A stretch of 32,000 nt of DNA from an uncultured archaeon (lineage in GTDB: Archaea; Iainarchaeota; Iainarchaeia; Iainarchaeales; CSSED10-239), in NCBI GenBank assembly GCA_964496765.1, contig CAZCAP010000001.1, forward strand, positions 83,814 to 115,813. The letters are read 5' to 3'. The translations under genes were made by a program, and so were the position numbers. The notes beneath the pieces were generated by a model that saw only the letters and a list, made by a program, of their open reading frames with translations, was not told where the DNA came from and did not search any database. This document shows positions 3,709 through 22,502 of the stretch, piece by piece. Position 1 is the stretch's first letter. Each line of letters begins with the position of its first letter.

Positions 3709-5206
3709 AGGAGGTGATCCGTCCGCAGGTTCCCCTACGGACACCTTGTTACAACTTAGTCTGTCTCGCGGGATATAGAATTACTTCGACCTCTAAAGAT
3801 TGAAGTTCATCCACACTCCACTCAACTGGCTTGATGGGCGGTGTGTGCAAGGCGCAGGGACATATTCACCGCGCGATAGTGACACGCGATTACTGGGGAT
3901 TCCAGCTTCATGAGGGTGAGTTGCAACCCTCAATCCGGACTTGGATTACGTTTCTGTGATTGCCACCCCCTTTCGGGTTAGAGACACATTGTCGTAACCA
4001 TTGTATGCCGCGTGTTGCCCAGGACATTAGCGCTATACAGACCTACCTTCGCCCATTCCTTCCTCATTGTTACCAATGCAGTCTTATTAGAGTGCCTCTC
4101 CATCATAAAGAAAGAAAGTAGCAACTAATAATATGGGTCTCGCCCGTTACCTGAGTTAACAGGAAGCTTCGCAGTACGAGCTGACGATGGCCATACAGCA
4201 GCTTTCAGCGTATCAGGTAAACCCTTCAGATTGACCGTCATCTGGCTGTCAGCCCTGGTGAGATATCTGGCGTTTCATCCAATTAAACCGCAGCATCCAC
4301 CCCTTGTAGTGCACCCCCGCCAATTCCATTAAGTTTCAGTCTTGCGACCATACTTCCCAGGTGGTGGATTTAATGATTTCTCTTCGGCCCTGAGTTAACT
4401 CGTAGTTAACCCAACACCTAATCCACATCGTTTACAGCTGGGACTAACCGGGTATCTAATCCGGGTTGCGCCCCCAGCTTTCGTGTCTCATTGTCAGATT
4501 AGTTCTCGTTTGGCGCCTTCGCCACAGGTGGTCCTCCTAGTATCTTAAGATTCTACTCCTACTCTAGGAATACCCCAAACGTCTCCCTATCTCTAGTTCT
4601 GTCAGTATCTTTTGCAATTCAACTGATTAAGTCAGCTGCTTTCACAAAAGACTTAACAAACCAACTACACACGCTTTAAACCAAATAATGCTGGATACCA
4701 CTCGGGGATTACGTATTACCGCGGCGGCTGGCACGCATATTGCCCCCCCCTTATTCGTATTGTTATCGACACAATACAAAAGCTTACGAATGTAAGCACT
4801 TGGAATTCCTTTATCACGGTTTCCCGCATTGTAAAATTTTCGTAACTGCTGCACCCCGTAGGGCTAGGAACATTATCTCAGTTTCCTTCTCCGGGCTCCC
4901 TCTCTCAAGGCCCGTACAGATCTTCGGCTTGGTAGGCAATTACCCTGCCAACTACCTAATCTGACGCAGTCCCATCTTTTCGCACTTAAATCTACATGAC
5001 AACTTAAGCCTTTGAAAAATCAATCATTCCAGATTTGATTTTCTATAGAGCATTATCCTTAGTTTCCCAAGTTTTACTCTTCAAAAAGGTAGGTTGACTA
5101 CGCGTTACTGAGCCGTTCGCCAAAGTTCATCATGGTTAGAACTTTTAGACTTGCATGTCTTAGTCGAATTCCAATAGCAGTACCCACCAGCAGGATCAGC
5201 TGGAAT
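3709..5206 (-). rRNA. rrs: 16S (SSU) rRNA, archaeal
   Basis: Reverse strand. The 5' end reads ATTCCAGCTGATCCTGCTGGTGGGTACTGCTATTGGAATTCGACTAAG. Internal conserved blocks are GTGCCAGCCGCCGCGGTAATAC and GAAACTTAATGGAATTGGCGGGGGTGCAC. The 3' end reads AAGTTGTAACAAGGTGTCCGTAGGGGAACCTGCGGACGGATCACCTCCT. Length is about 1.5 kb, so there is no room for a large intron. Confidence 0.97.
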
Positions 5207-5432
5207 TGGTATTAATTATTATGCACACAAAGATATTTTGTAAATTTGCACAAATTGCTTTTGTTTAGCTATTTGTTTCGTCTTCTCCCAACATCAGACT
5301 CAAAAAAATTTGAGACCTCATCATTATACAAGATCCACAGTTTTACCTAAAATAGATTTAGATAAAAAAGAAACTTGATATTACCTCATTTGAAAAATTC
5401 AAACGCGGTAATATAATAATGGAGTAGAAATG

Positions 5433-5440
5433 TTTATAAA
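5433..5440 (-). promoter_or_regulatory. Candidate TATA box (TTTATAAA) for the 16S rRNA transcript
   Basis: It lies in the 286-bp spacer upstream of the 16S 5' end, after the stop of the preceding gene. It would imply a leader of about 200 nt. Other AT-rich candidates exist in the spacer, for example at 5411-5420. Confidence 0.35.
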
Positions 5441-5492
5441 GGTATATGTCGTTTTCCTCAGAAAAAGAAAGATTTCGGGTAGACCTATAACC

Positions 5493-5972
5493 TTATTTAG
5501 TTAATTTTTCAAGAAATCTTATTTTTTTAAGATATTTCTTATTTCCTCTTAATAAGTATATATACCTATACATTTTAAGAAGCATTCCTAATTTAACAAC
5601 AATTACCTTATTTTTTTTGTATATTATTGTTTCTCTAAGCCTATAATCTTCAAGAACAGATAAAGCAAGCTTATCATAGGATCCTTTCTTGAAAGCCATT
5701 ATATCTATTTCTGTTCCAAACAATTGAAAATCAAATCTTCCACCAGTGTCTGATTTATAATCCTTTGAATTAAATGTAACTTCTTTTATCTTAGAAAGAA
5801 CATTATCTATCTTCCTTAAATCTTTATAAAAAATAAATATATCAATGTCATTTGCTATTTTTCTAAGCCCTCTTATCTTTAGAGACAAAGATCCAAACAC
5901 AAAATAAGTTATTTTTTCTTTGTTAAATAAATCAATTATAAAAAATAGAGCTTTATTAAAATTTTTCTTCAT
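5493..5972 (-). CDS. Nucleotidyltransferase-fold protein (minimal NTase/MNT-like)
   Basis: 159 aa. The N-terminal FVFGSLSLKIRGLRKIANDIDIFI fits the G-S...D-x-D pol-beta superfamily NTase signature. Confidence 0.55.
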   Translation of the reverse strand: MKKNFNKALFFIIDLFNKEKITYFVFGSLSLKIRGLRKIANDIDIFIFYKDLRKIDNVLSKIKEVTFNSKDYKSDTGGRFDFQLFGTEIDIMAFKKGSYDKLALSVLEDYRLRETIIYKKNKVIVVKLGMLLKMYRYIYLLRGNKKYLKKIRFLEKLTK

Positions 5973-5980
5973 TGATTATC

Positions 5981-6448
5981 CTAATTTTTTTTATTTTTAG
6001 ATAGTATTTCTTTTGCAATTTTTTGTCTTTTCTTAATATCCATTTTAGGCCCAACTAATGTAGTTATATATCCAGGATATTTTTCAAAATAAATATTACC
6101 TGACAACTCTCCAAACTTGGAATCATCAATTTTGGGCATAGGGTATAATTTAGTATGAATGTGATTTACTCCTTGCCCTTCAAAAACCATTGCAACCCTC
6201 TTAACCCCTAATCCTTTTTCAAGAATCTTTGCAACCTTCTTTGAAATTAATAGTAACTTTGTATATACGCTAGGAGATAAATCAAAAACATAAGAACCAT
6301 AATGTTCTTTTGTTAATACAAGAGTTGCACCTTTTATATTTGGGTGGGCATCTAAAATAGCAATAAAAATTTTATCTTCATATATGATTGCAGCTTCAAG
6401 TTCCTTCTTTGCAATCTTACAAAACACACAATCAGATTTTTGCTTCAT
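5981..6448 (-). CDS. HIT-family protein with a variant triad (H-I-H-T-K)
   Basis: 155 aa. The N-terminal CVFCKI and the block GQGVNHIHTKLYP align with the canonical paralog's QSVFHLHFHIIP (9753-10154). The third His is replaced by Lys. Confidence 0.75.
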   Translation of the reverse strand: MKQKSDCVFCKIAKKELEAAIIYEDKIFIAILDAHPNIKGATLVLTKEHYGSYVFDLSPSVYTKLLLISKKVAKILEKGLGVKRVAMVFEGQGVNHIHTKLYPMPKIDDSKFGELSGNIYFEKYPGYITTLVGPKMDIKKRQKIAKEILSKNKKN

Positions 6449-16065: not shown

Positions 16066-16854
16066 TTATATATCTAAACCTTTAAATAGATTATTGTTTT
16101 CTTCGGCTTCTTGGAATGGAATACGTAATTGACTTCTAACTTTTTTTTCTGCTCTATAATCAACAGTTTTTTCTAACACTGGGTTTAGTCTTCTTAGCCA
16201 ATCAATTAATTCTCTTAGTTTCTTAAAATCAGGATTAGTTATTAATCTATTACATTTAACTGTATATTCATGTGTAAACTGATGGAATAGTTTTCTTAGG
16301 AATTCATCATAACCAAGAATATTAAAATCTGATATTTTATTAACAACACCTAATAATTCCTTTTCTAAATTTTCTTTGTATACCTTATAATTTGCATGTT
16401 TAAAAACATCCGCTTCTTTTAATATTTTAAATAATGCAGTTGTATGTAAATCCATTTTTTTCTTATTATTTCGAAGTTGGGAAGCATATTTTTCCAGGGT
16501 TCTAAAATTAGATATTATTTCCTTTTGATTACGTAACTTTGCATTCATTGATTTTTTGGTTTTCTGTTGTTCAGTTAAATTTTCAATGGACAGACTTTTA
16601 CCTTTCCTATTAACAGGATCAATAAATATTGGTCTATAATGACTATCATTTACTTTCAGATGATACTTAAGAGTTCTACCAGAATCTGAAACTTTTTTAT
16701 TATATTTATCTAAAAGAGTGATTAAATCAAACTTTGGTTTGTATCTTACTATCTTTTTATTTGATTTACTGATTTTAAGAATTCTATGAACATTTAATTC
16801 AAACTCTGGATATTTCATTTCCTTTGGTGTTCTTGGTCTTTTAACTGATGGCAT
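16066..16854 (-). CDS. Orphan basic/helical protein ending in an FtsZ-like C-terminal peptide
   Basis: 262-aa ORF starting MPSVKRPRTPKE, 17 nt downstream of the agmatinase gene. The C-terminus ...EENNNLFKGLDI resembles the FtsZ C-terminus ...[10 protein letters not shown]. Confidence 0.6.
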   Translation of the reverse strand: MPSVKRPRTPKEMKYPEFELNVHRILKISKSNKKIVRYKPKFDLITLLDKYNKKVSDSGRTLKYHLKVNDSHYRPIFIDPVNRKGKSLSIENLTEQQKTKKSMNAKLRNQKEIISNFRTLEKYASQLRNNKKKMDLHTTALFKILKEADVFKHANYKVYKENLEKELLGVVNKISDFNILGYDEFLRKLFHQFTHEYTVKCNRLITNPDFKKLRELIDWLRRLNPVLEKTVDYRAEKKVRSQLRIPFQEAEENNNLFKGLDI

Positions 16855-16871
16855 GTACTATTCCTCTGTCC

Positions 16872-17807
16872 TTATCTTAAATAATATTTATATCCAACAA
16901 GTTTATAGACTAATTTTGCTAGGGTATAGCTTTCAGGAAAATAATCATCTTCCTTCCCTGTTGGTGTAAACTCAACAATATCTGCACCAATTACATTCTT
17001 TTCTCTAAATATAACTCGAAGAAGAGAAAGAAGTTGGTTATAGTTTATTCCTCCAGGCTCAAGTGCTGCTGTGTTTCTAATAATTGATGGATCAAGAACA
17101 TCCACATCAATTGAGATAAAGATATTCTTTGGTAGTTTTTTTAATTGATTAAGAAATAATTTGTTTTTAGATAAATCATAAAACGTGCTTTGATTGTCCA
17201 AGAAGTCTTGCATTTTTATTAAAGAGATATTTTTATTATCTTTACTTTTTAGAAATTCATTTTCATAAAAGTCCATTGTTCTAACTCCAACAATCAAAGA
17301 TTTATGTTTTTCAGAAATTATTTTTGTAGTACATGCCTGCCACCAGGTATCCTTTCCCCATGAATCATAGCAATCAGGATGAGTATCAAAAACAATTATT
17401 CCAAATTCTTCATTCTTCTTTTCATAGATCTTTTCAAAAGCAGAGATTAGAGGAATAGTTGTTGAATGATCAGATCCTAGAATAATTGGAAACTTATCCT
17501 TAGTTAGTTTAAGATCAGAGAGATAATTAACTATCTTTGGAGATATCTTAATAAAATCCTTATCTTTAAGAGAGAAAATATTTTCTGTATATATCCCTTG
17601 GAGATAAGATTCTTTTCCAAGTTCAAGATCAAAATAATCAATATTAGTGGATGCTTTAAGGATTACTTCTGGTGCCCTGTAGGCTCCACTACCATGAGCA
17701 AGAGGGATATCATAGGAAATTGGTATGATTATAACCTTTGATTTCTTTTTGTCACTATGTTCCTTTGGAACATTCATAAAATTTAATTTTTTTACCATTG
17801 GGATCAT
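16872..17807 (-). CDS. speB: Agmatinase / ureohydrolase family
   Basis: The arginase-fold Mn-ligand blocks are GSDHSTT, VFDTHPDCYD, SIDVDVLDPS and GADIVEFTP. The 4-nt start/stop overlap with the upstream decarboxylase supports the agmatine substrate call only by context. Confidence 0.82.
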   Translation of the reverse strand: MIPMVKKLNFMNVPKEHSDKKKSKVIIIPISYDIPLAHGSGAYRAPEVILKASTNIDYFDLELGKESYLQGIYTENIFSLKDKDFIKISPKIVNYLSDLKLTKDKFPIILGSDHSTTIPLISAFEKIYEKKNEEFGIIVFDTHPDCYDSWGKDTWWQACTTKIISEKHKSLIVGVRTMDFYENEFLKSKDNKNISLIKMQDFLDNQSTFYDLSKNKLFLNQLKKLPKNIFISIDVDVLDPSIIRNTAALEPGGINYNQLLSLLRVIFREKNVIGADIVEFTPTGKEDDYFPESYTLAKLVYKLVGYKYYLR

Positions 17808-18868
17808 TCCTCAAACTCTATTTCTGGTCTTTCTAAATTAAAAAGATCTGTGTAATAGATGTAAGCTCCTGCATTTAAAAAAATTAATTTAGCTCCTATC
17901 TTCGGTTCTTTTCCTTCTTTGAAATACACCCTATACCTAAATATATCTTCTGATGCTGGGGTTAATCCCTTTATTGTGAAAGGAGTTCCTTTTTCAGCAT
18001 CCACATCATCAACCTCACCATCAACCAATAATTTAATGTGGGTTACAAGTGTATCCATTGATGAATTGAAAAGAGAAGCGTCTATAAAGATGGTATTATC
18101 CACAATATTCTTGATTGTACTAACAAGCTTACCAGCAGGAGCAGCAATTGCTCTTCCTGGCTCAATAATTAATTGAATATTATTTTTATTTACAAAAGTT
18201 TTTAGTTCTTTTATTTCTTTGTAAACATTATCAATTACAGAAACACTTATGTTCTTGTAGGGAACAGGAATTCCTCCACCAATATCTAAATATTTAATTA
18301 TACTTATTGTTTCTTTGGTTAATGAATCAGATAATTCATTAATTAATTCCCATTCAGATAGATTTTGAGTTTTTCTATGAACATGCACACCAAGTGCTTC
18401 AATTTTTTTATTACCTTTTAGTTTAGAAATTAATTCATTTACTTCTTTGGAATAGAATCCATAAACAAAATACCTTCCTGTTTGAATTGTGTATTCTTTT
18501 AATCTCATTCTTAAAAGAAGAGTGATTTTTGTTTCTTGGGAGGTATCACTGTCCAAGAAATATAACAAGTTATTTAAATCATTTTGATTATCAACAATAA
18601 ATTTATTTATTTTATTTTTAAATAAAATATCAAGTTCTTCTTTTTCTGGAGAATGGAGCATAAACCAAATCTTTGTTTTATCTTTAACATAGATTAATTC
18701 GTTTATATGATGAAGTAGGAAACTTGATGTTGTGTTGTCTTCCAGGATTGTTGTGAGATATGGATTAGATTTAACACTATAGGCAATAATATTTGATAAT
18801 TCACTTAATTTATTATACTCTGATATTACCTTTGACTTTGAAAATATAAATTTTGCTTTTGACAACAT
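17804..18868 (-). CDS. PLP-dependent Orn/Arg/DAP-decarboxylase-fold enzyme (putative arginine decarboxylase)
   Basis: The PLP-lysine block is AYSVKSNP, the phosphate-binding block is DIGGGIPVPY, and EPGRAIAAPAG and NAGAYIYY are present. The usual G-P-x-C-x-x-x-D block reads GLTPASED, so there is no Cys. Substrate is inferred from the neighbouring gene. Confidence 0.75.
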   Translation of the reverse strand: MLSKAKFIFSKSKVISEYNKLSELSNIIAYSVKSNPYLTTILEDNTTSSFLLHHINELIYVKDKTKIWFMLHSPEKEELDILFKNKINKFIVDNQNDLNNLLYFLDSDTSQETKITLLLRMRLKEYTIQTGRYFVYGFYSKEVNELISKLKGNKKIEALGVHVHRKTQNLSEWELINELSDSLTKETISIIKYLDIGGGIPVPYKNISVSVIDNVYKEIKELKTFVNKNNIQLIIEPGRAIAAPAGKLVSTIKNIVDNTIFIDASLFNSSMDTLVTHIKLLVDGEVDDVDAEKGTPFTIKGLTPASEDIFRYRVYFKEGKEPKIGAKLIFLNAGAYIYYTDLFNLERPEIEFEE

Positions 18869-18881
18869 AGTTTAAACCATT

Positions 18882-19538
18882 TTATTTTATTTCACAAACA
18901 TATTCAGGGAAACTATCAACTAAATCTGTTGTTGACATCTTTTTTGGCTCCAATAAACCAGTTTTTTTGTTTTTAACTAAATAATCTATAACTCCTTTTT
19001 TAAAATTAAGATGAGTGACCTTCTCAATCCCTAAAGATAAAAGATCTGTTCTATACAAAATAACCGCTCCCTTACTTGTTGGCTTAAATCCAAGATGCTC
19101 TGCAAATCCAGGAAAGCTTTCAAACATCCAAGTATTTATAACTATTTTTTTAATATTATTTTTTTTACAATGTTTTTTAAGATAATTAATTGAAGTTTTA
19201 ATTTGATGAAGATCGCTTATTGTTTTAGGACCCTTCCGCTCTATCTTTTCTATATATAATATTTTTCCATCTCGTTTTGATTCAACAAAATAATTTTTTG
19301 AAAAAATTCCAACATTATCTCTCCAAACAATAGTATGATAATTATTATTTTCAATGAAGCTATGACCTCTTTCATATATATCTCTAAATAGTTCTTTGTG
19401 TGATTTCCTAATTTTATCATTCTTGATTATATTTTCATTAATTACTACTTTTTTATTATACTTCTTATCTAAGTAATCAAATACTTCATTTACTCTTTCT
19501 TGTTTCCTAGTTGTTTTACGAAAAGGTATAAATCTCAT
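18882..19538 (-). CDS. Orphan protein inside the dhs-decarboxylase-agmatinase cluster, weakly GNAT-like
   Basis: 218-aa ORF. ...IEKIERKGPKTISDLHQIKTSINYLKK...IVINTWMFESFPGFAEHLGFKP loosely recalls the GNAT acetyl-CoA-binding region and the terminal ...lGF motif. The resemblance is weak. Confidence 0.45.
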   Translation of the reverse strand: MRFIPFRKTTRKQERVNEVFDYLDKKYNKKVVINENIIKNDKIRKSHKELFRDIYERGHSFIENNNYHTIVWRDNVGIFSKNYFVESKRDGKILYIEKIERKGPKTISDLHQIKTSINYLKKHCKKNNIKKIVINTWMFESFPGFAEHLGFKPTSKGAVILYRTDLLSLGIEKVTHLNFKKGVIDYLVKNKKTGLLEPKKMSTTDLVDSFPEYVCEIK

Positions 19539-19550
19539 ATAATCATCAAA

Positions 19551-20489
19551 TTACTTAATTATTCCTTCATTAACTAGATCATCCAATGCTTTTGTTATTG
19601 CTATTGGGAAAGTAATGGTCACGTCTCCAATCACAGTGACTGCGTCTGCATCATCCTTTATCTTACCCCAGGATTTTGCTTCATCTGTTGTTGCTCCTGA
19701 AAGTGAACCAGACTTAGGAGATGCAGTTGTCATATAGAGTGCATAGTCTGCTCCTCCGTTAATCAAAGTTGTTAAAATCACGTGATGCTTAGAAATTCCA
19801 CCACCAAGAGCAATTATTCCTTTCTTCTCATCATGACTTGTTGAAAAAATAATATCTTTAAAATCATTTATAATATCCACATTGAAATCAGGATGATCTT
19901 GTTTAAACATATAAAGATGGAACCCAAATGAACCATCAGTTATTGCAGGACAGAAAATTGGAACATTATTCTTTGCTGCTTGATAGAGAATAGAGTTTTC
20001 ATCATTTAATTTTAATCCAATCTCTTTAATCAATTCAGAGATTTGCCAAACTTTCTTAATACCATACAAATCCAATAAAAGTTTTTGCATCTTTCCTTCA
20101 AAATTAGAATAGCTCTCACTTGTTATATAAATATCCCCAACCCTATTATGTCCCTTCTCATATAATTCTTCATCATTTGAAGAAAAGGTACCTAAAATAA
20201 ACTTTTCTCCATCTGCTTTCATAATATCTTCTTCAATTGAACCAACAGTAGTTACAATAACATCACACATTTTTAATTTAATTAGTTGTGCAAAAAAACC
20301 TCTAAGTCCAGAAGTCACCATATTAGAAGTAAATGAAAAATATATTTTTGCTCCATTCTTTTTCATTTTTTTAATTAACTCACTAGCTCTATATAGTTCA
20401 TAGGATTGAAAACCAACCCCAGAATAGGAATTAACTAATTCTGATACTGTTAGTCCTTTCTTCCAAAATAAATCCTTTGTGTATTGCAT
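19551..20489 (-). CDS. dys: Deoxyhypusine synthase
   Basis: The start is taken at MQYTKDLFWKKG, 24 codons downstream of the track's ORF start. Motifs are GGGISKHH and TTDEAKSWGKI, which carries the catalytic Lys context EAxSWGK. Confidence 0.9.
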   Translation of the reverse strand: MQYTKDLFWKKGLTVSELVNSYSGVGFQSYELYRASELIKKMKKNGAKIYFSFTSNMVTSGLRGFFAQLIKLKMCDVIVTTVGSIEEDIMKADGEKFILGTFSSNDEELYEKGHNRVGDIYITSESYSNFEGKMQKLLLDLYGIKKVWQISELIKEIGLKLNDENSILYQAAKNNVPIFCPAITDGSFGFHLYMFKQDHPDFNVDIINDFKDIIFSTSHDEKKGIIALGGGISKHHVILTTLINGGADYALYMTTASPKSGSLSGATTDEAKSWGKIKDDADAVTVIGDVTITFPIAITKALDDLVNEGIIK

Positions 20490-20602
20490 AATTTTATCAC
20501 ATAATAAGTATATTATATATATTTTATGAGAAAAAGCAAATATAAATATATTTATTAACAAAAAGCAGACTTTTTAAACCTAATTTACATATAAATAGAT
20601 AT

Positions 20603-21247
20603 ATGCCTTTAAGAAAGCCAATATCTGTTCCAGAACCAAGAATATTTAAATATTCAGCTATTGGTAGAAACAAATTTTCAAAAAAATTAAAACTGGATCC
20701 AGAAATTAATCAAAAGGAAACAGCTCTACTTATATTACCAGGAAAAAATGGTATTCATGAAATTGCAAGAGAAAGAAGAAAAAAAGCAGTTGTTGTTGAT
20801 GATCAAAAACTTGAAAACAATTTAAATAATTTTTTTTTAAAGATGCATTCAAAGGGAATACTTAACTTTAGAAACAGAGCGCGTATTCTACACACCCACA
20901 TCATGGATTACAAAAAAGTAATCAAGGGTGTTGAGAAATTTGTTGCTCTCCCAAGCATTTCTGATATAAAGGATCTAATGAATAGCTATCAAAGACTAAG
21001 ACATGGCTATGAAATAATAGGTGTGTTTGATTCAAAAAGAAATGAATGTGGATACACAGTAATAAAAATAAACAGAGAAAAGATAAGTAAAGATAATCTT
21101 AAGTTTATTGCTGATCTTAAAGAAAACTCACAGGGGGATAAAGAAATTCTTTATTCTAGATTATCAAGAATGGGACTTGAGATATACTTTACTCCAGTGC
21201 CAGGATACAAGCTTGATAGAAATTTTAATTATGTTAAAGAAAAATAA
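20603..21247 (+). CDS. Orphan protein, member 2 of the 3-copy H-T-H...LPSISDI family
   Basis: 214-aa ORF divergent from dhs. It shares the HTH...LPSISDI block, following hydrophobic strands and the C-terminal YFTPVPGYKL block with ORFs 563-1297 and 26368-27057. Confidence 0.6.
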   Translation: MPLRKPISVPEPRIFKYSAIGRNKFSKKLKLDPEINQKETALLILPGKNGIHEIARERRKKAVVVDDQKLENNLNNFFLKMHSKGILNFRNRARILHTHIMDYKKVIKGVEKFVALPSISDIKDLMNSYQRLRHGYEIIGVFDSKRNECGYTVIKINREKISKDNLKFIADLKENSQGDKEILYSRLSRMGLEIYFTPVPGYKLDRNFNYVKEK

Positions 21248-21463: not shown

Positions 21464-21889
21464 ATGATTAAACATTGTGTTGGTGCAGTAATCTATAACT
21501 CAGAAGGAAAGATTTTTCTAATGACCTCTGAAAAATGGGTTGGGTATATTGTTCCTGGTGGAAAAATAGAAGAGGGAGAGGATGAAATTAGTGCGCTTAG
21601 AAGAGAAATTAAAGAAGAACTTGGAATAGAAATAATAGATATTAAAAAAGTTGGAGAAAAAGTTAAATCTCCAAGTAAAGATTTTAAGAAAGATAGTACA
21701 ATAACAATTCATTTCATTGATTTCTTCGCAAAAGCAGAAAGCACGAGAATAATTCCAAATCAAGAAGTTAGTTCCTGGGATTGGTATTCAATTGATGATG
21801 CACTTAAGTTAGCTCTACTGGATACCACTAGAGAATTTATTGAAAAATTTAAGAAATATGTAACCAGTGGTTTAATTAGATTTGATTAA
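21464..21889 (+). CDS. NUDIX hydrolase
   Basis: The Nudix box is GGKIEEGEDEISALRREIKEELGI (G-x5-E-x7-R-E-U-x-E-E-x-G-U). GGAGGG lies 8 nt upstream of the ATG. Confidence 0.88.
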   Translation: MIKHCVGAVIYNSEGKIFLMTSEKWVGYIVPGGKIEEGEDEISALRREIKEELGIEIIDIKKVGEKVKSPSKDFKKDSTITIHFIDFFAKAESTRIIPNQEVSSWDWYSIDDALKLALLDTTREFIEKFKKYVTSGLIRFD

Positions 21890-22502
21890 CCTGAGGCATA
21901 CCAAACTTAAAATTTGCTTGTGGAAAGTAATCAACCCTGGGAATCTTTGATTTTTGAAATCTTAGAATATCATCTTTTTCTGTTATTCCACTATTATGAA
22001 GCATTCCATTCATTTTTGCAAAGATTATATTTGTTGCAACACAATCCCCCATTGCCCTATGTGCCTGTGGGTTACTTACCTCAAAATAATCACACAAAGA
22101 AGCAAGCTTTCTTGATGCTAGATCAGGAAGTAGTCTTCTAGAAAGCCTAATTGTACACAAGCGATTATTCAAAAGAGATCTTTCTAAATGTTTTTCTGAA
22201 TTATGATTTATAAATCCAAAATCAAATCCAACATTATGTCCAACCATAACATCTTCTCCTAAAAAATTAAGAAATCCAGGAAGAACTTGTTTAATTGGTT
22301 TCTCATACCTAACCATTTCATTATCAATTCCTGTTAAATTAGTAATAAACTCAGGAATTAAACATTCTGGATTAACAAGAGATTGAAACTTATCAACAAC
22401 CCTATTGTCTCTTACTCTAAGAGCTGCAATTTCAGTTATCTTACAAAAATGTTTTGATAGTCCAGTTGTTTCAACATCAAGAACAACATAATCTGTAAGC
22501 AT
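21876..22502 (-). CDS. DEDDh 3'-5' exonuclease (DnaQ/epsilon-like)
   Basis: Exo I is VLDVETTGL, Exo II is GHNVGFDFGF and Exo III is HRAMGDC. Its 3' end overlaps the convergent NUDIX gene by 14 nt. Confidence 0.85.
   Translation of the reverse strand: MLTDYVVLDVETTGLSKHFCKITEIAALRVRDNRVVDKFQSLVNPECLIPEFITNLTGIDNEMVRYEKPIKQVLPGFLNFLGEDVMVGHNVGFDFGFINHNSEKHLERSLLNNRLCTIRLSRRLLPDLASRKLASLCDYFEVSNPQAHRAMGDCVATNIIFAKMNGMLHNSGITEKDDILRFQKSKIPRVDYFPQANFKFGMPQVNQI

Follow-up and report, generated by a model that had tools for sequence, protein, structure and literature searches.

The source of deoxyhypusine in archaea that do not make spermidine has been an open question since at least 2016, when the deoxyhypusine synthase (DHS) of Haloferax failed in vitro. 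In model (d) of Prunetti et al. (2016), agmatine is transferred by DHS and an agmatinase-like enzyme finishes the reaction (PMC5178350). The DHS homologue CdmS/SpeY of Thermus couples agmatine and uses neither putrescine nor spermidine (PMC10981699). Its pocket differs from that of human DHS exactly at Phe204 (human Asp243) and Leu286 (human Asp316), and its Glu293 and Ser67 have been modelled on the guanidino group (Kobayashi et al., PMC10981699). SpeD-like enzymes of DPANN archaea were proven by assay to be arginine decarboxylases (ADC; PMC10407285), and Li et al. (2026) asked whether agmatine-dependent DHS proteins are encoded by archaea (PMC13625781). Here we describe a compact cluster around a DHS gene in a 32,000-nt stretch of an uncultured archaeon of the order Iainarchaeales (GenBank assembly GCA_964496765.1, contig CAZCAP010000001.1, positions 83,814 to 115,813; hereafter the window). 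On balance, the cluster probably encodes a spermidine-independent, agmatine-based module for the deoxyhypusination of the translation factor aIF5A.

The genes of the cluster are given below with window coordinates, starting from the upstream end.

20490-20560, minus strand: likely promoter region, an A/T-rich TATA-like stretch as read from the sequence
19551-20489, minus strand: DHS, 312 aa from the ATG at 20489 (the longest open reading frame (ORF), 19551-20561, has a TTG start)
18882-19538, minus strand: orf218, an orphan whose predicted fold is weakly GNAT-like, 218 aa
17804-18868, minus strand: compact fold-III decarboxylase dependent on pyridoxal phosphate (PLP), 354 aa
16872-17807, minus strand: agmatinase-like ureohydrolase, 311 aa
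16066-16854, minus strand: orf262, a very basic orphan, 262 aa

The ORF listing and the family matches agree with the original prediction, which had been made from the window alone, on five co-directional genes spaced by 12, 13, -4 and 17 nt and on their order of DHS, orphan, decarboxylase, ureohydrolase and orphan. The overlap of the decarboxylase stop with the ureohydrolase start is an ATGA, reading GAATGATCC. Inspection of the sequence placed the TATA-like A/T-rich stretch 15-35 nt 5' of the ATG at 20489, and this ATG, not the upstream TTG, is likely the true start of DHS.

The gene order was compared in a sample of 201 genomes of the phylum, from which 24 loci were fetched. DHS is nearly universal in this sample (179 genomes), and clear orthologues of the decarboxylase were found in 27 genomes belonging to at least seven families of one order. 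Since the decarboxylase lies directly 3' of DHS in 16 of the 24 loci, again from at least seven families and frequently with overlapping stop and start codons, the linkage of the two genes goes beyond chance. The decarboxylase adjoins the ureohydrolase in 11 loci, and in one lineage the two are fused into a 599-aa protein, encoded by the same ORF in three independent assemblies. The fusion ORF overlaps the DHS stop by 4 nt; the two genes interrupt a conserved row of translation-factor genes, with aEF-2 on one side, aEF-1alpha on the other and the gene for ribosomal protein S7 upstream (L053:4066-6800, NCBI GCA_018651605.1, and also L054). Eight holders have no ureohydrolase next to the decarboxylase; each of these carries a single Arginase-family gene, which in five of them (families f8, f13, f20 and f28) stands immediately downstream of aIF5A. 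As these adjacencies occur in different lineages, aIF5A, DHS, the decarboxylase and the ureohydrolase are tied to one another pairwise. DHS, the decarboxylase and the ureohydrolase form the conserved core; among the five genes that had been proposed to belong together, it is these three whose linkage is kept in relatives. A 418-aa ORF in which a partial Arginase-family domain is joined to a decarboxylase without its N-terminal part occurs in two assemblies, in neither of them near a DHS gene (L055:5001-6257, L056:1935-3191), and may be a decayed or rearranged fusion.

The DHS of the cluster scored 340 bits against PF01916, and the archaeal DHS model NF002294 was its best-scoring model (328 bits, cut-off 350); the score of 138 bits against the SpeY equivalog NF002699 (cut-off 500) places the whole sequence outside SpeY. 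The hallmarks of the family, SWGK (human K329), IEED (E137) and TDGS (D238), are present here and in all linked DHSs. In the alignment with human DHS the pocket residues Lys329, His288, Glu323 and Trp327 are kept, whereas Asp243 is replaced by Phe, Asp316 by Leu and Asp313 by Ser. The canonical spermidine-binding acids D243 and D316 are hence missing, and the motifs GFH, SGSLSG, DEAKSWGK and FTSN of this DHS agree with Phe204, Leu286, Glu293 and Ser67 of the SpeY/CdmS pocket. Judged by these residues, the pocket looks agmatine-type. In all DHSs linked to the decarboxylase, position 243 falls in G-(F/I)-(H/Q) and positions 313-316 in SGS-(L/M/A/V)-SG, and a tree of 28 sequences, built with no outgroup and with 16 hand-picked unlinked rows, sets these DHSs apart by a single split (support 100/99). 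Among the other DHSs of the phylum, three types can be told apart: GD+DGSD (eukaryote-like), GD+DGSL (Pyrococcus-like) and GLQ+DGSL. Several genomes with the GD+DGSD type carry SpeE, and the GLQ type was found in DHS-x-aIF5A-agmatinase clusters or beside a protein with an AdoMetDC-like domain. A 324-aa protein encoded directly 3' of a D243-less DHS (L040:2094-3068, L045:3900-4871) ends in an AdoMetDC-like domain; its N-terminal part of ~190 aa is without a family match.

The DHS gene is present in a single copy and is the only homologue in the genome, as it is in nearly all other decarboxylase holders. Being the only copy, it must serve aIF5A. The presence of aIF5A, which the original prediction had left to be looked for, was confirmed on another contig; it has the hypusine lysine in the loop SKPGK39HG, and this SKPGKHG loop is invariant. 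No SpeE, AdoMetDC, PdaD (the pyruvoyl ADC) or CASDH/HSS of the saccharopine-dehydrogenase family was found in the genome, which is 86% complete. SpeE was likewise not found in any of the 19 genomes sampled from this family, one of which is a single contig that also has no AdoMetDC, so that the missing spermidine synthase, first noted for the window, holds for the genome and its family sample. A true SpeE occurs in about 13 of the 201 phylum genomes, none of which has the decarboxylase.

The decarboxylase was matched weakly by PF02784 Orn_Arg_deC_N (43 bits) and by the lysA model (67 bits, cut-off 298), and in part by carboxynorspermidine decarboxylase (42 bits). The motifs of fold III (the alanine-racemase fold) are invariant in alignment A1: K33 in AYSVK33SNP, G197-G199, E236-R239 (EPGR) and A333-G334-x-Y336. 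In place of G-P-x-C-(D/E)-x-x-D with its active-site Cys, the family has G-x-T-P304-(A/C/D)-S-x-D, in which Pro304 aligns with the Cys of the Vibrio lysine/ornithine decarboxylase (L/ODC) and of diaminopimelate decarboxylase (DAPDC) and is followed by Ala, Cys or Asp. The family is small: among 1.84 billion representatives searched with a profile, ~85 clusters reached E<=1e-30. Homology is no guide to the substrate, because the profile scored similarly low in the PDB against DAPDC, L/ODC and viral ADC. The attempt to derive the specificity in this way failed, the weak PDB and NCBIfam matches being spread over the diaminopimelate (DAP), Orn/Lys, Arg and carboxynorspermidine decarboxylases.

More can be said from single positions and from partners. 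The Arg-Pro pair of DAPDC binds the distal carboxylate of DAP. As the present family has Met/Leu and then an invariant Asp at these positions, DAP is an unlikely substrate on the alignment. The enzyme is a candidate ADC, and we infer arginine because the ureohydrolase partner is constant and even fused, other ADC types are absent, the one PdaD-bearing genome of the archaeal family has no decarboxylase and the position is parallel to that of the SpeD-type ADC. PdaD co-occurs with the decarboxylase in one of the 27 holders, as against ~5 expected by chance, but the genomes are non-independent and most have neither gene, which leaves the exclusivity weak; the one genome of the archaeal family that has PdaD is without the decarboxylase. 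In related genomes, an ADC-like gene derived from SpeD holds the same place beside a D243-less DHS.

The ureohydrolase belongs to the Arginase family (PF00491, 129 bits) and scored 134.7 bits against the agmatinase model TIGR01230, below the cut-off of 174.3 bits for canonical SpeB. The ligands of the binuclear Mn centre and the catalytic Glu (H114, D141, H143, D145, D234, D236 and E279) are invariant in the 13 sequences of alignment A3, and the genome encodes no other member of the Arginase family. The enzyme is best called agmatinase-like: as its substrate, agmatine, a bis-guanidino compound and a protein-bound guanidinobutyl group are indistinguishable by sequence. Ureohydrolase homologues associated with SpeY do not cleave agmatine (Li et al., 2026, PMC13625781).

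The two orphans had been put forward as candidate missing components of the pathway, and this part of the original prediction was not borne out. Neither orf218 nor orf262 had a significant Pfam or NCBIfam match. orf218 has only two relatives among 5.8 billion proteins; it occurs in eight loci confined to genera g1 and g2 of one family, with two tandem copies in one relative. Its model (pLDDT 71) gave weak top matches in the PDB (E ~1e-3, TM 0.35/0.48), all of them GNATs, and the structure matches in the ESM Atlas were GNATs as well (TM 0.41-0.48). A clear Q/R-x-x-G-x-G/A acetyl-CoA motif was not seen in it, and the predicted fold is weakly GNAT-like (acetyltransferase). orf262 has four relatives, all at least 62% identical and restricted to a genus-level clade, and is absent from the cluster in other genera; its ESM Atlas model (pLDDT 0.40) had no usable match, and sequence searches were likewise uninformative. 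In six other families DHS and the decarboxylase are immediate neighbours, and the slot between the decarboxylase and the ureohydrolase is filled in relatives by a DEAD-box helicase, a kinase-like protein or a RelA/SpoT protein, all unrelated. Both orphans were rejected as pathway components on their distribution, orf218 being found in two genera and orf262 in one. Given this restriction, they are lineage-specific inserts and not part of the core, and orf262 probably stands outside the pathway. A conserved orphan of 293 aa without a family match lies 43 nt downstream of aIF5A in the genus (L002:565-1446, L057:569-1453); orf218 was considered as its relative and found to be unrelated (hhalign probability 0.2%).

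We propose the following course of reactions. The compact PLP decarboxylase would convert arginine to agmatine. DHS, without the two acidic residues that bind spermidine, would oxidise the primary-amine end of agmatine with NAD, forming an imine at Lys329, and would then transfer the 4-guanidinobutyl group to Lys39 of aIF5A, as its pocket match with CdmS/SpeY suggests. The agmatinase-like Mn enzyme, to which the linkage with aIF5A points, would hydrolyse the guanidino group, so that urea is set free and deoxyhypusine remains. In a side or parallel reaction the same DHS may couple two agmatines to bis-guanidino-homospermidine. The two orphans would be clade-specific additions outside the core steps. 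What the sequences show is that the genes are linked, that the pocket has the signature, that only one DHS is present and that no other donor pathway was found; every chemical step is inferred from these. The agmatine-linked hypusination module of the original prediction is supported in part, by the missing SpeE, the conserved linkage, the sole DHS, the presence of aIF5A and the agmatine-type pocket, and not in the role given to the orphans. The more specific claim, that N6-(4-guanidinobutyl)lysine is formed from agmatine on aIF5A by the sole DHS, that a protein-directed ureohydrolase finishes deoxyhypusine and that the decarboxylase founds a new Cys-less family of PLP ADCs, is tentative, with a chance slightly short of even.

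Several observations weigh against the agmatine proposal. Leu at position 316 is also found in the Pyrococcus-type DHS, a close relative of which uses spermidine (PMC5178350), so that only position 243 discriminates. The DHS of Haloferax was inactive in vitro with all donors, agmatine included (PMC5178350). The decarboxylase is about equally distant from the DAP, Orn/Lys and Arg decarboxylases and has its usual Cys replaced, and the genome holds two other LysA-like decarboxylases, in tandem ~30 kb before the cluster and outside the window:

contig C1 69822-72310 (L031:3822-5018 and 5126-6310), minus strand: LysA-like fold-III pair, 398 and 394 aa, ~190 bits against lysA (cut-off 298)

By sequence, this pair may be DAPDC-like Orn/Lys/Arg decarboxylases; the genome is unlikely to make lysine, and the pair complicates the assignment of the decarboxylase linked to DHS. 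The genome is 86% complete, and uptake of spermidine from a host is possible. The fusion of the decarboxylase with the ureohydrolase more simply suggests the consecutive conversion of arginine to agmatine and putrescine.

The main rival to the agmatine-based module, a published reading of such clusters that the original prediction had not taken into account, is an operon of the SpeY type, in which an ADC supplies agmatine, the DHS homologue couples two molecules into N1,N9-bis(guanidino)homospermidine and the ureohydrolase releases free homospermidine, while aIF5A is modified by the same enzyme from homospermidine or the bis-guanidino compound, or from scavenged donors. Both the set of three enzyme types and the F243/L316 pocket are as in the characterised bacterial pathway, ADC-speY-speB clusters, including the speDA-speY-speB clusters of DPANN archaea, have been published as homospermidine pathways (PMC13625781; PMC10407285), and SpeY-associated ureohydrolases act on the free bis-guanidino compound (PMC13625781). 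This explanation is nonetheless unlikely for an archaeon that bears aIF5A and has only one DHS homologue, the more so as that homologue scores as archaeal DHS (328 bits) and not as SpeY (138 bits, cut-off 500). It also has to accommodate the ureohydrolase beside aIF5A in five related genomes and the fused module among translation-factor genes. Moreover, a guanidino-type pocket would still be expected to put guanidinobutyl on aIF5A, which would call for a ureohydrolase acting at the protein level.

The decarboxylase and the ureohydrolase might instead make putrescine from arginine via agmatine, with DHS using putrescine or host spermidine and the clustering reflecting a shared polyamine theme. 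Such a route is among the models listed by Prunetti et al. (PMC5178350), and consecutive steps would agree with the decarboxylase::ureohydrolase fusion and with the ATGA coupling; with D243 lost, the aminopropyl end of spermidine would have no binding site, and putrescine would have no need of that site. Yet no enzyme of the DHS family is known to take putrescine as donor, those of T. kodakarensis (DHS) and Thermus (CdmS) having failed to do so, and a pocket without D243 and D316 suits spermidine poorly. A canonical agmatinase would, furthermore, drain the agmatine expected in the F243 pocket (Li et al., 2026, PMC13625781). We regard this route as improbable. Least probable of all, and very unlikely in our view, is that the decarboxylase acts not on arginine but on ornithine, lysine, a carboxy-polyamine, a protein-bound or another substrate, which would make the pathway a different one. 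The very weak similarity to every characterised subfamily, with the partial match of 42 bits to carboxynorspermidine decarboxylase, and the change of the catalytic Cys to Pro next to a residue that may be Ala, Cys or Asp would agree with this. Against it stand the constant partner, in one lineage fused, which is a guanidino-cleaving ureohydrolase, the position of a SpeD-type ADC that the decarboxylase occupies beside D243-less DHSs, and the lack of a detectable CASDH in the genome. The Met/Leu and invariant Asp at the site of the DAPDC Arg-Pro likewise argue for a cationic distal group.

If the agmatine-based module is real, it would be a second, spermidine-free route to the modification of an essential translation factor. 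It would also give enzymes of the agmatinase family a protein substrate, making this the first protein-directed ureohydrolase, and would name a new decarboxylase family of compact, Cys-less PLP ADCs. The finding would bear on the donor used by the ancestral DHS. The module offers a minimal test set of three genes, two of them available in fused form.

The five genes have no hard operon limit, because the co-directional run continues downstream: after 50 nt it resumes on the same strand with genes for unrelated membrane proteins, a DsbD/glutaredoxin-like one and an M50 protease. On the other side, a divergent plus-strand gene begins at 20603. The assembly comprises 738 kb in 26 contigs with a GC content of ~29%, with an archaeal 16S rRNA and a signal recognition particle (SRP) RNA among its genes; the genome is of the DPANN type. 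The 16S rRNA gene lies at 3709-5206 on the minus strand, apparently with no 23S rRNA gene alongside it within the window, and the other Rfam matches in the window were tRNAs and SRP RNA only. Agmatidine synthase, through which agmatine would be needed for tRNA-Ile as well, was sought with one domain model, TiaS_FLD, which matched neither this genome nor five others of the order. Three of the five are single contigs, and ARAGORN found no tRNA-Ile gene in the present assembly; both negatives bear on the decoding of AUA in a genome of 29% GC. At 21876-22502 (minus strand) the window encodes a stand-alone DEDD exonuclease of the bacterial PolC/DnaQ-epsilon type (RNase_T, 126 bits), whose gene adjoins NUDIX and FtsZ genes in relatives, a conserved placement. 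One lake metatranscriptome contained 9% of the sampled sequence words.

Three described systems come close to this locus. The bacterial SpeY/CdmS clusters (PMC10981699; PMC13625781) combine the same three enzyme types, Phe and Leu stand in their DHS homologue where human DHS has residues 243 and 316, and in some bacteria the ADC is a neofunctionalised decarboxylase of the alanine-racemase fold. The present locus differs in that the whole-sequence score assigns its DHS to the archaeal type, that this DHS is the one homologue of an organism with aIF5A, that the ureohydrolase is linked to aIF5A in relatives and that the decarboxylase comes from a different, compact and Cys-less family; the product here is likely a modified protein, instead of or besides free homospermidine. 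The aIF5A-agmatinase-DHS clusters of Euryarchaeota, taken with the Haloferax volcanii agmatine model (PMC5178350), share the linkage of DHS, an agmatinase-like gene and aIF5A and the lack of a working spermidine route, and it was there that DHS was proposed to transfer agmatine and agmatinase to act on the modified protein. In Haloferax, however, the pyruvoyl ADC is encoded elsewhere, whereas here a PLP decarboxylase is coupled to the DHS gene, and an enzyme known to use agmatine now offers a pocket signature for comparison. The speDA-speY-speB clusters of Woesearchaeota and Diapherotrites (Li et al., 2023, PMC10407285) likewise bring together an ADC, a DHS homologue and an agmatinase, and this layout with a D243-less DHS is also present in genomes related to our archaeon. 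Their ADC is an assayed pyruvoyl derivative of SpeD, unlike the unrelated PLP enzyme described here, which is a candidate ADC, and they were read as serving homospermidine synthesis, with aIF5A not considered (PMC10407285). Altogether, the clustering of DHS, agmatinase and aIF5A (2016), the ADC-speY-speB clusters of DPANN archaea (2023) and the agmatine chemistry of SpeY (2024, 2026) are already published; new are the compact Cys-less PLP decarboxylase in the position of the ADC, its fusion with the ureohydrolase, the split DHS-decarboxylase and aIF5A-ureohydrolase pairs, and the pocket signature in a sole archaeal DHS.

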